Shown here: in pieces, positions 2,861 to 62,890 of the stretch
How the letters are laid out: every line of letters starts with the position of its first letter
How positions within the stretch are numbered: position 1 is the first letter of the stretch
Assembly: GCA_963769285.1 (NCBI GenBank)
Contig: CAVYLE010000002.1
Location: 91,904 to 155,903, forward strand
Reading direction: 5' to 3'
DNA length: 64,000 nt
Source of the DNA: an uncultured Verrucomicrobiae bacterium
GTDB taxonomy: Bacteria > Verrucomicrobiota > Verrucomicrobiia > Limisphaerales > UBA11358
The notes under the pieces: generated by a model
What the model was told of the DNA's origin: nothing
Database searches by the model: none
Seen by the model: the letters and a program-made list of their open reading frames with translations, nothing else
Position numbers and translations under genes: made by a program

Positions 2861-2994
2861 GGTAGGGCGGTGCTGCTGCACCGCAGCCCTACCAAGTCTT
2901 TTGGTTTTGCGAACGATCGTTCGCAAATTCAGTCGCTGGTTTTTTCAGAGAGAGGCGGACGTTTCTCCCCCTCCACCAACAGTGTTGGGGGAGA
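2861..2994. repeat. Cluster of three palindromes in the inter-cassette spacer
   Basis: 'GGTAGGGCGGTGC..GCACCGCAGCCCTACC' at 2861-2893. A perfect 20-bp palindrome TTGCGAACGATCGTTCGCAA at 2907-2926. A hairpin TCTCCCCC-N15-GGGGGAGA at 2964-2994. Confidence 0.8.
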
Positions 2995-3115
2995 GAGCCG
3001 GGGTGAGGTGGCGCGTGACCGTCTGCAAAGACCTTGTCCGCCGGGGGAAAACGACTCCTCTCGCATCGGGCGATGAAAGCTGAATTATTGCAGAGCGCAT
3101 CCATCGCAAATCATC

Positions 3116-3144
3116 TTGACAAGTCAGGCTAATCTGATACAAAT
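3116..3144 (+). promoter_or_regulatory. Candidate sigma70-type promoter for the second fibre gene
   Basis: TTGACA (3116-3121), then a 16-nt spacer, then TACAAA (3138-3143), about 60 nt upstream of the ATG at 3202 in an AT-rich stretch. Confidence 0.3.
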
Positions 3145-3201
3145 AAAAAAGTAACAACCCTTAAGTTTTGGAACAAACAGAACTGTTTTTAAAAAAGCCT
3201 T

Positions 3202-60729: not shown

Positions 60730-61641
60730 ATGTACTTTTTAAAACGATTGCTCTTCGCCATTCCGCTGCTGCTGGTCATCAGCGCGCTGGCGTTTGGGCT
60801 TGTGCGTCTCGCCCCGGGCGGCCCTTTTGATGGCGAGCGCGCGCCGGCGTCGCCCGAAATCGAGCGCGCCCTGGAAGCAAAATATCATCTTGATGAACCG
60901 GTCTGGAAACAGTACTTCCGCTACCTGGGCGATCTGGCGCATGGCGATTTCGGGGTTTCGCTCAAATACCGCAATCATACGGTCAATGATATCATTGCGC
61001 AGGGATTGCCGGTCTCCATGCTGCTCGGCGCGCTGGCGTTCGCCTTTGCGATGGGGGTCGGGCTGCCTGTCGGTTTTTTCACCGCGGCAAAGCGCGGGCG
61101 CTGGCCGGATTATGCCGGCAGTTTTCTGGCCACACTGGCCGTGTGCGTGCCGGGATTCGTCGTTGCGCCGTTGTTGATCCTGCTTTTTTCCATCAAATGG
61201 AAGCTGCTGCCCGTCGGCCTCTGGGAAACGCCGTGGCACATGATTTTGCCGCCCATCGCTCTCGGCCTGTTCTTCGCCGGCAAAGTCGCCCGGTTGATGC
61301 GTGAAGGGATGTTGAACGCCATGCAATCAGAATTTGTCACCGCCGCGCGGGCCAAGGGACTGGGCGAAACCCGGTTGCTGTTCCGGCACGCCTTCCGCAT
61401 CGCCGTGCTGCCGGTCGTGTCCTATTCCGGCCCGATGCTGGCCGACCTCCTGACCGGCTCGTTTGTCATCGAGAACATTTTCCAGATTCCCGGCATCGGC
61501 GTCTTTCTCGTTAACAGCTCGTTGAATCGCGATTACACCGTCGTCGTCGGTCTTTCGTTGCTCTATGCCGCACTGCTCATCGGGCTGAATCTGATTGTGG
61601 ATTTCGCCTACACCCTGCTCGAACCCGCGCGTGAAATATGA
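60730..61641 (+). CDS. Peptide ABC transporter permease (OppB/DppB-like)
   Basis: Start 'MYFLKRLLFAIPLLLVISALAFGLVRLAPGGPF'. The ORF-track start at 60688 lies inside the REP element and is rejected. Confidence 0.8.
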   Translation: MYFLKRLLFAIPLLLVISALAFGLVRLAPGGPFDGERAPASPEIERALEAKYHLDEPVWKQYFRYLGDLAHGDFGVSLKYRNHTVNDIIAQGLPVSMLLGALAFAFAMGVGLPVGFFTAAKRGRWPDYAGSFLATLAVCVPGFVVAPLLILLFSIKWKLLPVGLWETPWHMILPPIALGLFFAGKVARLMREGMLNAMQSEFVTAARAKGLGETRLLFRHAFRIAVLPVVSYSGPMLADLLTGSFVIENIFQIPGIGVFLVNSSLNRDYTVVVGLSLLYAALLIGLNLIVDFAYTLLEPAREI

Positions 61642-62654
61642 GTGAACGTGATAAAATTGGTAGGGCGGGCAGTCCTCTGCCCGCCGCGAATGCAAACGAC
61701 GGCGCGCACGGAGTGTCGCGCCCTACCCGTGTTTCGCCGGCACAAGGCGCATGGCAGCGCTTCCGGCGGAATCGCGCCGCCGTTATCAGCGCGTGGTACC
61801 TGGTTTTCCTGCTGCTCGCCATGGTTGCCTGGCCGCTCATCCTTAAAATATCCGGCGGGACCTTTGCCCAAGTCCATAATCCCAACCGGCTCTCCGATGC
61901 ACAATTTGCGCCACCGGGTGCGCAATACTGGTTTGGCACGGACGTCCATGGGCGCGATGTTTTTTCCCGCATTTTGTTCGGCGCGCAAATTTCGCTGCTC
62001 GTCGGCATCATCGGCGCCATGGTGAGCCTCGTCATCGGCGTGTTGTGGGGTGCCATTGCCGGTTACGTGGGCGGGCGCGTGGATAACGCGCTGATGCGCA
62101 TCGTGGATATTCTCTATTCGCTGCCGACGGTCATTTTCGTGATTGTGCTCATCACCACGTTCGGTGAAATGCTCAAGCAATCGCATTTTGTCGGCAATTC
62201 GCCGGTGTTGGCCGGCGCCCTGCGTGTGATGTTGCTATTTGTCGGCCTGGGTGCGGTGTCGTGGTTGACCATGGCGCGCATCGTGCGCGGGCAGGTATTG
62301 TCGTTGCGGACGCGGGCGTTTGTGGAGGCGAGCCGCGTGCTGGGCGGCGGGCCGGTGCGGATCCTGGCGCGGCACATCATCCCGAATGTTTTTGGCGTCG
62401 TGATCACCTATCTGGCGCTCACCGTGCCGGCGATCGTGCTTTATGAATCCTTCCTGAGTTACCTTGGCCTGGGCGTACAACCGCCGATGGCAAGCTGGGG
62501 TACACTTATCGCGGAAGGCGTCGGACAAATTAATCCCATCCGGATTTACTGGTGGCTTATCGCCTTTCCCGGTGGCGTGCTAGTGACGACGCTGCTGGCG
62601 CTGAACTTTCTCGGCGACGGCCTCCGCGACGCCTGGGATGTAAAGGGAAAATGA
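61638..62654 (+). CDS. Peptide ABC transporter permease (OppC/DppC-like) with a REP element in frame near its N-terminus
   Basis: ATGA overlap with the upstream permease. 'WQRFRRNRAAVISAWYLVFLLL', 'GTDVHGRDVFSRILFGAQISL'. Confidence 0.8.
   Translation: MSERDKIGRAGSPLPAANANDGAHGVSRPTRVSPAQGAWQRFRRNRAAVISAWYLVFLLLAMVAWPLILKISGGTFAQVHNPNRLSDAQFAPPGAQYWFGTDVHGRDVFSRILFGAQISLLVGIIGAMVSLVIGVLWGAIAGYVGGRVDNALMRIVDILYSLPTVIFVIVLITTFGEMLKQSHFVGNSPVLAGALRVMLLFVGLGAVSWLTMARIVRGQVLSLRTRAFVEASRVLGGGPVRILARHIIPNVFGVVITYLALTVPAIVLYESFLSYLGLGVQPPMASWGTLIAEGVGQINPIRIYWWLIAFPGGVLVTTLLALNFLGDGLRDAWDVKGK
61659..61727. repeat. REP-like element, family E (69 bp, in frame in oppC-like codons ~8-30)
   Basis: 'GGTAGGGCGGGCAGTCCTCTGCCCGCC..GGCGCGCACGGAGTGTCGCGCCCTACC'. 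It encodes 'GRAGSPLPAANANDGAHGVSRPT'. Confidence 0.85.
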
Positions 62655-62748
62655 TGGATTGAACGAATTGCCGAAATCCATAATTTTGCAATTTATAGCG
62701 CCAGAGACGCGGCATCTTTGTAGGTTTTTACCGCAATATTCATAAGAG

Positions 62749-62890
62749 CCTGTCTGAAAATGTGGAGGCAGGCTTCCCAGCCTGCCAGTGAAAGCGGCTT
62801 CCAGCCGCGTAACTGGCCGAAACTGGCGGCAGGATGCCGCCTTCACTGGCAGCCAAGATGGCTGCCGCTACATTTTCAGACGCGCTCTAA
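62749..62890 (+). repeat. 142-bp multi-hairpin element, family B, copy 2
   Basis: Same orientation as 9860..10002 and identical apart from a single G deletion ('ggccgaaac' against 'ggccggaaac'). Confidence 0.9.

Follow-up and report, generated by a model that had tools for sequence, protein, structure and literature searches.

A GTAG-headed palindrome family in a Verrucomicrobial chromosome and its likely partnership with a divergent RAYT clade in related genomes

Introduction

The 64-kb stretch of contig CAVYLE010000002.1 analyzed here is scattered with short palindromes, many of them headed by GTAG. This whole stretch is hereafter called the window, and the element census, chance tests and gene calls all refer to it. 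An earlier note on this DNA proposed that the palindromes are repetitive extragenic palindromes (REPs) forming a single superfamily dependent on a REP-associated tyrosine transposase (RAYT). The question raised by the locus is which of the palindromes are REPs of this kind, and which enzyme would have served them. The GTAG REP superfamily was defined by Di Nocera, De Gregorio and Rocco (2013, BMC Genomics 14:522, PMC3733652). The window has a GC content of 56-59%. Both its gene content and the loci carrying the same repeats indicate Verrucomicrobiota of the Pedosphaera/Limisphaerales type. Scans of the window for tRNA genes and against Rfam gave no match. We consider it quite probable that this chromosome was colonized by GTAG-class REPs, with one family (family A) served by a RAYT clade present in relatives and the other families standing apart from it.

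Results

Family A arms bracket a RAYT-like gene in related genomes

The family A arm is 24 nt long and consists of GTAG-CA, a stem of 7-8 bp, a GTNA loop, the returning stem and a final C; two such arms with their heads outward make a doublet. Scanning the window with a covariance model built on the arm gives nine significant arms (6312, 6378, 10018, 10068, 60651, 60691, 15305, 21625 and 21671), which together with one disrupted arm make up five doublets, beside 13 other elements. The z scores given here and below compare single-strand folding with shuffled sequence.

6312..6401, + strand: family A doublet with a 42-nt spacer, arms of 42.2 and 40.4 bits, z = -5.3; between convergent genes, a + strand open reading frame (ORF) ending at 6060 and an lnt-like gene at 6428-7816 on the - strand
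10018..10091, + strand: family A doublet, z = -9.3; between a TPR gene (ending at 10110, - strand) and tatD (- strand)
60651..60714, - strand: family A doublet, z = -8.9; between the genes for an ABC-transporter substrate-binding protein and a permease
15230..15328, + strand: decayed family A doublet, head now TTGCAG; in frame in recN, at site 2
21625..21694, + strand: decayed family A variant of the perfect-stem subfamily, arms of 29.0 and 29.4 bits, z = -0.9; in frame in aceE (- strand)

The right arm of the decayed recN doublet (15305-15328) is still detectable, both by the arm model (31.3 bits) and by alignment with locus L212, where the doublet is intact, and locus L213, where the site is empty. 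A further candidate at 55010 was rejected as a family A copy (8.9 bits, E = 5.5, not significant).

A motif scan of fetched loci located, in L012, an ORF containing PDHIHLV between two inverted family A arms, and a gene bracketed in the same way is present in L120, L125 and L130. A metagenome scan added 80 loci, and 84 RAYT-like loci were examined in all. In 63 of the 84 an inverted pair of arm type was found through a 10-nt exact seed; the others, with no seed pair or a match of 10-11 nt, carry arm-type 24-mers no more than 350 nt from the gene when seven mismatches are allowed. All 84 have family-A-type arms within that distance, on both sides wherever both flanks are present. The sequence of the arms tracks the lineage of the RAYT-like protein while the stem is kept (for example GTAGGAGACGACGTGAGGAGTCTC and GTAGCAGCGGACGTGAGTCCGCTC), with lineage-specific stems such as AGCC/GGCT, AGAC/GTCT and GCGGAC/GTCCGC.

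The protein encoded between the arms is about 200 amino acids long, of the Y1/HUH type, with a conserved C-terminal extension. Both the HUH motif (PDHLHLV) and the tyrosine motif (Y141-x3-NP) are conserved, and D81, H82, H84, Y141, N145 and P146 are invariant in 27 sequences. Its AlphaFold model (pLDDT 78, pTM 0.75) has as its best Foldseek match in the PDB chain 4er8_A (E = 4e-7, TM 0.52/0.64), followed by TnpA of IS200/IS605, and a profile search of PDB sequences with the family returned 4er8 alone (E = 5.6e-5). This structure, PDB 4ER8, shows the E. coli RAYT in complex with a REP hairpin, and its sequence identity to the RAYT-like protein is about 20%. Among the 1,370 relatives of the family, none is hit by Pfam and several are named "REP element-mobilizing transposase RayT" by JGI.

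Intact Y1/RAYT genes flanked by the same repeats, which the earlier note had put forward as something to look for, thus do exist for family A in related genomes. The arrangement that defines a REP-RAYT pair is found in these relatives, with no such gene in the window. Searches for other Y1 genes with profile hidden Markov models and phmmer, over 0.85 Mb of family A loci and the window, returned only the A-type RAYT and one fragment of a different family, described below. Family A is a genuine REP, and probably the cognate of a Verrucomicrobial RAYT clade.

Some of the RAYT ORFs in our alignment A1 (P0180, P0190, P0260, P0158, P0252 and P0257) run into the flanking REP arms, and the called proteins have REP-encoded ends (N-terminal ..EPPHVGCY.., C-terminal ..DSSRRLL.. 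or ..QSLLTSAAT), which shows that the repeats distort gene calls.

Each family A arm is conserved as its own hairpin

A pattern scan of genome contigs found the exact family A arm in at least 119 stretches of GTDB genomes, from dozens of metagenome-assembled genomes (MAGs), almost all Verrucomicrobial; several MAGs carry many family A loci each among the matches listed. Exact arms also occur on contigs of MAGs labeled Klebsiella, Bifidobacterium, Bifidobacteriaceae (L006, L015, L052, L053, L056 and L059 hold the odd labels) and Acidobacteria (L014 and L046). Such contigs are most likely Verrucomicrobial and mis-binned into those MAGs.

Arm statistics were taken from the fetched loci. The pair closing the loop is C-G or G-C in 159 of 167 exact-pattern arms, with a mismatch in only 5. 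A looser definition of the arm gives 619 instances (193 distinct), in which five stem positions are 84-93% paired with several pair types at each, while two further positions form a tandem G.A/A.G in the main subfamily and Watson-Crick pairs in others (for example GCGGAC-GTGA-GTCCGC). A formal covariation count made on 111 distinct arms gave 105 cells with a change on both sides, compared to 25.8 +/- 3.9 in shuffles; the covariation score was 0.319 against 0.088 when shuffled (0 of 500 as high), and slid controls did not exceed 0.082. The commonest heads among the 193 distinct arms are GTAGCA (87), GTAGGA (34) and GTGGCA (16), and upstream of GTAG there is merely a pyrimidine preference at -2 and -1.

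The earlier note had observed that two arm variants, ..GACGTGAGGAGG.. and ..GAGGTAACGAGG.., are found in swapped positions in different copies, and took this to suggest arm exchange rather than simple copying; recombination or gene conversion could bring such exchange about. At 6312 and 60651 the variants do stand the other way round, but 60651 read as its reverse complement coincides with 6312 in each arm and at the ends of the spacer, so the swap is an effect of orientation. The two variants differ by a compensatory change from C-G to G-C at the closing pair within each arm. Over 86 doublets the closing-pair types combine independently (41 same, 33 mixed and 5 same, compared to 42, 31 and 6 expected). 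Arm exchange is not needed to explain these data, and we regard it as extremely unlikely. Compensatory changes, which the earlier note had proposed to test for between arms, give a strong signal within each arm's own hairpin, but the two arms of a doublet pair their types at random. Selection would seem to target the hairpin of each single arm and not pairing between arms.

In one subfamily of doublets a 17-nt stretch just outside the GTAG head (AACARCYCGTYAAAGAA) is conserved across genomes together with the spacer. Stretches of this type are at 6295-6311 and 10000-10017 in the window and in L031, L094 and L099, the three MAG loci whose copies also have the spacer of the 10018 doublet. The copied unit in this subfamily extends beyond the head-to-head span.

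Palindromes in the window exceed the number expected by chance

The census comprises 18 elements in at least eight sequence families, covering 1,482 nt or 2.3% of the window. All palindromes listed in the earlier note were found at or beside the positions it gave; the family A variant at 21625-21694 was not on its list. One assignment changed: a GTAGC at 15255 had been taken as a family A head, and is really part of a 33-nt mini-REP (15243-15275) nested within the decayed doublet at 15230-15328.

The palindromes are real and well beyond a chance number. GTAGCAGCCG occurs 7 times, compared to 0.02 expected, and there are 26 inverted repeats of at least 14 nt within 200 nt, compared to 3-15 (about 10) in Markov shuffles. 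Twelve inverted repeats with arms of at least 20 nt (20-35 nt) have no counterpart in the shuffles. Single-strand folding gave z = -3.4 to -10.1 for 14 of 15 elements, the exception being the decayed copy in aceE. Long inverted repeats were preferred as a statistic over small perfect hairpins, which are only weakly enriched (42 compared to 23-37).

GTAG and its complement CTAC are not in overall excess (141 on both strands, about 127 expected), and 22 of the 141 fall within the elements, at the ends of arms. Of the GTAG(C/G) heads described in the earlier note, GTAG is present at both outer ends of 10 elements: the five of family A (one decayed), the recN-1 element, three of family E and that of family D. 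The elements at 33943 and 34289 have GTGG heads. Each B copy (9856 and 62745) combines one GTGG head with one GTAG head on the opposite side, set 12-17 nt in from the ends of a longer terminal repeat; the B-like element at 33081 has its GTGG/GTAG heads in the center. The head is not shared by the elements at 17523, 34541 and 46025, which start with TTTGG and have neither GTAG nor GTGG.

Most other families share the head, with no RAYT found beside them in the loci searched

The remaining elements are as follows.

35706..35803, + strand: family D doublet, 29-nt perfect inverted repeat, z = -10.1; between a yfhO-like gene and pfk
24330..24390, + strand: family E heterodimer with GGTAGGGCG heads and two unlike hairpins; in frame in a lipB/lplA-like gene
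61659..61727, - strand: family E heterodimer in reverse orientation to that at 24330; between oppB-like and oppC-like genes
2861..2893, unstranded: short E-type hairpin, GGTAGGGC...GCCCTACC, z = -4.2; 51 nt 3' of an ORF at 2366-2809
14203..14253, + strand: recN-1 element of 51 nt, with a GTAGCG...CGCTAC outer stem and two 7-bp hairpins; in frame, recN site 1
15243..15275, + strand: mini-REP of 33 nt with a GTAGC head; nested in the left arm of the recN site-2 doublet
9856..10000, + strand: family B composite with terminal inverted repeats of 19-32 nt, z = -7.8
62745..62888, + strand: second copy of family B; between convergent genes, in a context unrelated to that of the 9856 copy
33081..33183, + strand: B-like element with the same four hairpin modules, heads inward, z = -4.2; upstream of the likely start of the yfhO-like gene
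33943..33996, + strand: GTGG-headed palindrome, GTGGCGGCGACGCC...GGCGTCGCCGCCAC; in frame in the yfhO-like gene
34289..34349, + strand: GGTGGGGCG-headed palindrome, z = -8.4; in frame in the yfhO-like gene
34541..34600, + strand: TTTGRAGTGCG-type element with two GACATGTC hairpins and no GTAG, z = -6.8; in frame in the yfhO-like gene
46025..46123, + strand: TTTGGACTGCG-type element with no GTAG, z = -3.4; intergenic, between two - strand genes
17523..17625, + strand: TTGGCGGGGCGAGC...GCTCGCCCCGCCAA element with no GTAG, z = -4.8; in frame in a HAD-lnt fusion gene (- strand)

The stems of D, E, recN-1 and B are perfect, of 7-9 bp, and each of these families has few copies. The family D arm reads GTAG-CG-GCAGGCG-TCC-CGCCTGC (7-bp stem, 3-nt loop), and the yfhO-like ORF takes its stop codon from the TAG within the GTAG head. 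The E element at 61659 would fall within the first 31 codons of oppC if an upstream ATG is used. For the TTTGGAnTGCG termini named in the earlier note, the start of the 34541 element reads TTTGAAGTGCG and does not conform; only the complementary arm does (TTTGGAGTGCG).

Family B is built of modules, each with one GT(A/G)G-headed and one CAGTGAA-headed hairpin. At 9856 and 62745 two modules form a heads-out dimer, whose interior holds two GTGG/GTAG-headed hairpins and two inner CAGTGAA-headed ones (at 9856 the heads are at 9873, GTGG, and 9980-9983, CTAC), and at 33081 they are heads-in. The copies at 9856 and 62745 are 53 kb apart and 98-100% identical over about 148 nt with sharp boundaries, which is direct evidence of recent copying of the composite. 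TA stands directly outside the terminal repeat on both sides of both copies (9854-10002 and 62743-62890; TA|AGAGCC...GCGCTC|TA). It is either an extension of the palindrome or the target duplication of an IS630/mariner-type miniature inverted-repeat transposable element (MITE), between which two copies cannot distinguish.

Among GTAG-headed 14-mers not of type A that bracket 300-1700 nt there was one uninformative case only (L091, 344 nt). The A-arm covariance model left D and E arms unscored and gave recN-1 arms an E of about 1. A search of 1.1 Mb from other Verrucomicrobial loci gave no B motif and 3 hits to a 12-nt D head; E-type and GGTGGGGCG heads are each found in about 15 loci. The proposed single RAYT-dependent superfamily is not supported: a GT(A/G)G head is common to most families, but a RAYT was found for A only and three elements lack the head. 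That head is all that ties the proposed superfamily together, because no RAYT came with another family and the A model is blind to D and E. By analogy with family A, the D, E, recN-1, B, 33943 and 34289 elements are most likely REPs of other RAYTs, unseen or lost; for D, E, recN-1 and B we infer this dependence from their architecture only. The TTTGG-headed elements are a separate class.

A Y1 fragment in the window belongs to a different transposase family

The earlier note had identified a RAYT-like remnant at 7936-8184. The fragment is a true piece of a Y1-family protein, but it consists of the C-terminal tail only, belongs to another family with non-GTAG repeats and lacks the catalytic domain.

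7894..8184, + strand: C-terminal tail remnant of a Y1 (TIRYT-like) transposase family; right-end repeat follows at 8196-8215

The peptide has 1,205 relatives, mostly short, and no Pfam hit. Long relatives (P0082, 321 amino acids) have PF01797 at residues 13-123, and the window peptide aligns with them only at 227-305. A full-length gene of this family in L211 has terminal repeats of 25-30 nt (AAAGGGGTC..CCGAGTATTTACACA) without GTAG. Copies of the TTATAGGACCRACCCTTTCAC-type repeat found at these termini are in the window at 8196-8215, 8712-8738 (- strand) and 8872-8893. The stretch 8712-8893 is a gene-less inverted pair with 25-nt arms, MITE-like with respect to the tail-bearing Y1 family. Quentin et al. 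(2018, PMC6006769) report no association with REPs for Y1 subclasses that have a large conserved C-terminal domain. The fragment and the inverted repeats at 8196-8893 resemble both these C-terminal-domain Y1 genes and the TIRYT/TIRtron systems (PMC3733652) in their Y1_Tnp domain, conserved tail and non-GTAG terminal repeats, and differ in that the window keeps the tail alone. Because it is a tail only, because the termini of its family have no GTAG and because such Y1 subclasses are not REP-associated, the remnant provides no evidence for mobilization of GTAG families and is not the enzyme of the REPs in the window.

Half of the elements lie in frame within genes

The extragenic location by which REPs are recognized does not describe 9 of the 18 elements, which lie in frame within genes: two in recN, one each in aceE, lnt and lipB, three in the yfhO-like gene, and one nested. 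That about half of the copies are intragenic was not mentioned in the earlier note.

The recN ORF of the window is intact and encodes 613 amino acids, compared to 572 in the shortest close relatives. DNA alignment shows that at site 1 the window has the recN-1 element, L212 is empty, L214 has a family A doublet and L213 has another palindrome. At site 2, L212 has an intact family A doublet and the window has the same doublet with its head mutated and the mini-REP nested within it; L214 has a different A subfamily in another reading frame, and L213 is empty. The mini-REP is missing from the otherwise collinear L212 and adds 11 codons (AGRVVASARRP) relative to P0274. The two sites were surveyed in 120 RecN clusters at least 77% identical to the window protein. 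Site 1 is empty in 34 of these and of recN-1 type in 23, with at least six element types overall. At site 2 only 2 clusters are truly empty; its occupants include family A, in two reading frames, and at least five other types.

In aceE the 21625 element corresponds to a 30-residue insert between residues 717 and 718 of E. coli E1, which places it between the middle and C-terminal domains. At the 17523 element the HAD-lnt gene encodes about 33 additional residues, located between positions 369 and 380 of the Lnt structure, and the yfhO-like ORF continues open through three elements. The lipB/lplA-like domain at 24330 is about 21 residues longer than expected (a match of 201 amino acids to 180 profile positions); here the domain-length excess and a poor remote alignment are what suggest an insert. 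No orthologues of the lipB, lnt, aceE, yfhO or opp genes were present in the fetched loci.

Read from sequence, family A arms are open in five of six reading frames, which helps to explain their toleration in genes. The length of doublets modulo 3, measured from GTAG to CTAC in open frames, is uninformative, as the inserted DNA includes a few extra bases. The aceE gene (21120-23872, - strand) is also split over three frames by two 1-nt indels near 22175 and 23280 that are independent of the palindrome, and these are either assembly errors or the mark of a pseudogene.

Other repeats and coding features in the window

A 34-nt inverted repeat (TTTTTAACCACGAAATACAC...) at 49663-49856 brackets a short ORF starting with MANIIYRLESYEIMGACF, a start that we take to be typical of GxxExxY proteins. 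The AACCACGAAATACACGAAATACACGAAAG motif of this repeat also occurs at 9822-9850, just upstream of the first copy of family B. A short coding fragment at 56095-56231 (..EQTIQAARSGKMNLLEGSKAALTSKETEIKLTNVGRASLEELLDD) has a DNA match to one unrelated locus and is presumably like the C-terminus of four-helix-bundle proteins of the 23S rRNA intervening-sequence type. Four paralogues on the - strand have 99-nt 5' coding ends that are 80-85% identical (MKKLTFPFTEEKI..-type N-terminus), which points to a gene family that has recently expanded or is undergoing conversion.

25274-25372, - strand: MKKLTFPFTEEKI-type end
26102-26200, - strand: MKKLTFPFTEEKI-type end
28988-29086, - strand: MKKLTFPFTEEKI-type end
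30050-30148, - strand: MKKLTFPFTEEKI-type end

Coding tandem repeats occur at 554-1402 (about 123-126 nt) in the ORF at 11-2362 and at 3721-5261 (54 nt) in the ORF at 3202-5721; the former carry SxxxGxTW motifs, presumably of a BNR/Asp-box-like kind.

Discussion

Taken as a whole, the data suggest a Verrucomicrobial chromosome (Pedosphaera/Limisphaerales-like) that would have been colonized by small repeats of the GTAG REP class, forming hairpins in single-stranded DNA. The family A doublet would be of the REPIN kind (two REPs in inverted orientation), with the inverted arms bracketing the RAYT gene in relatives. By analogy with TnpA-REP of E. coli, the Y1/HUH enzyme would bind the hairpin and GTAG on single-stranded DNA, cut and rejoin it, and in this way spread doublets. 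Copies would persist where they are tolerated, that is, 3' of genes, between the genes of operons and, for about half, in surface loops of proteins, and intragenic copies would decay as neutral filler constrained by the reading frame alone. The near-identical B copies, the empty and filled recN sites and the mini-REP nested in a REP arm all argue that the elements have been mobile in this lineage.

Several results weigh against this reading. There is no RAYT catalytic domain in the 64-kb window, so the link to a RAYT rests on relatives. The RAYT-like proteins match the NCBIfam family REP_Tyr_transpos (NF047646) at 1e-11 with 41-45 bits, under the cut-off of 80, and no Pfam family, including Y1_Tnp (PF01797), hits the clade at E <= 0.01. 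Because they score below the thresholds of curated families, the proteins would form a divergent clade rather than an equivalog. The spacers of family A doublets differ widely between copies, which fits better with selected arms than with recent copying of whole doublets. In other genomes 38% of family A doublets are in open frames, compared to 73% of random positions; because of this depletion, coding insertion of family A is tolerated, not preferred. Finally, no transposase bracketed by B, D, E, recN-1 or TTTGG ends was found.

The proposal that all GT(A/G)G-headed families (A, B, D, E and recN-1) form one superfamily moved by a single RAYT, with the fragment at 7894-8184 as its vestige, is supported by the GTAG/GTGG heads followed by GC-rich hairpins that the families have in common, as well as by full-length relatives of the fragment, which carry PF01797 and match NCBIfam REP_Tyr_transpos at 5e-12. 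However, the P0082 family in L211 has terminal repeats without GTAG, and the same motif adjoins the fragment in the window; Y1 subclasses of this build are not associated with REPs (PMC6006769). All 84 family A RAYT loci carry A-type arms only, the A model does not recognize D or E, and B and D motifs have 0-3 hits in 1.1 Mb of other Verrucomicrobia, all of which makes a single superfamily very unlikely. A different origin for family B and the TTTGG elements, as MITEs moved by a DDE transposase via terminal inverted repeats and not as REPs moved by a Y1 enzyme, is possible but rather unlikely. The terminal inverted repeats of B do extend 19-32 nt, beyond the GTGG/GTAG heads, it is copied as a unit of 145-149 nt with sharp ends, and TA is present at both outer ends of both copies; the TTTGG elements likewise have terminal repeats and no GTAG. 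Against this, no DDE transposase or insertion sequence with matching ends was seen, the TA may merely extend the palindrome, and the modules of B are head-plus-hairpin units that recur with heads inward at 33081, as is typical of REP dimers (PMC3733652).

Selected regulatory hairpins of the host (terminators, mRNA stabilizers or gyrase sites), whose repetition would follow from function, would account for the location of intergenic copies 3' of genes or between genes of one operon and for the much stronger conservation of arms than of spacers over dozens of species, and REPs elsewhere have such roles (PMC3733652). As a full explanation this seems highly doubtful, since terminator-like sites show no enrichment (29 in the window, 30-31 expected) and the last hairpin of B alone scores as a terminator, nine copies lie within coding regions, the same arms flank a transposase-type gene, and identical sites are polymorphic for presence and absence. 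A regulatory role could be additional to mobility, not a replacement for it. Colonization by GTAG-class REPs, with family A served by its RAYT clade, accordingly remains the reading we prefer. A variation on it is that RAYT-type enzymes might insert preferentially into resident REPs, or replace them, making insertion targeted rather than tolerated. We regard this as improbable; if true, REPs would be renewable cassettes that diversify protein loops across an order of Verrucomicrobia, with repair proteins notable among those diversified (cf. Di Nocera et al., PMC3733652). In either case, the RecN hot spots are a natural data set on site-directed REP insertion.

The REPIN-RAYT systems of Pseudomonas and E. 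coli, reportedly described by Nunvar 2010, Bertels and Rainey 2011, Ton-Hoang 2012 and Messing 2012 (PDB 4ER8), are similar to family A in having GTAG followed by an imperfect palindrome, inverted doublets and a Y1/HUH gene flanked by inverted REPs. The mismatch within the stem is also alike, represented in the main subfamily of family A by the tandem G.A/A.G. Unlike those systems, in which each REP sequence is confined to one species group, family A has many intragenic copies, unconserved spacers and one REP across dozens of species.

Rickettsia palindromic elements (RPEs), which are said to have been described by Ogata et al. in 2000 and 2002, are also in-frame palindromic inserts at tolerated loops of functional genes, with sites filled or empty by lineage. 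The elements in the window have no sequence relationship to RPEs, their heads are GTAG, GTGG or TTTGG, and family A has a RAYT, whereas RPE-4 and RPE-6 are a CGTC-headed class without a dedicated transposase (PMC3733652).

The closest parallel is Opitutus terrae, of the same phylum, for which several coexisting GTAG families, one mostly GTGG-headed, have been described together with head-to-head and tail-to-tail dimers and RAYT genes bracketed by REPs, termed "REPtrons" (PMC3733652). Many in-frame intragenic REPs of about 20-30 residues, notably in DNA-repair genes, were documented in this organism as well, so that the same exception to extragenic location applies there (PMC3733652). The coexisting families, GTGG variants, dimers with variable spacers, intragenic copies and bracketed RAYTs are thus alike, while the window represents a different order of Verrucomicrobia with different family sequences, and recN is not among the genes listed (PMC3733652). 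A search for GTAGCAGCC gave no match in the text-form supplementary files of that paper. The RAYT clade linked to family A differs in its length of about 200 amino acids, its conserved C-terminal extension and in being missed by Pfam. The window system is therefore of the same kind as that of O. terrae, though it belongs to another order and differs in its family sequences and in a RAYT clade missed by Pfam. Four points appear to go beyond the earlier description (PMC3733652): one arm is broadly conserved along with its RAYT, the arm covaries in a formal test, RecN has hot spots occupied by several families, and one REP is nested in another.

These results affect how genes are annotated in this group. 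About half of the repeats are translated as inserts of 11-34 residues in real proteins, and repeats create false N-terminal extensions of ORFs, which has consequences for calling genes and aligning protein families in these MAGs. With over 1,300 members, the RAYT clade goes undetected by Pfam, so that its genes are mostly annotated as hypothetical. A well-supported REP-RAYT pair is added from a poorly studied, mostly uncultured clade, the Pedosphaera/Limisphaerales-like Verrucomicrobia, and the presence of a 24-nt arm and its transposase clade across dozens of species fits the idea that REPIN-RAYT systems are long-lived and vertically inherited.

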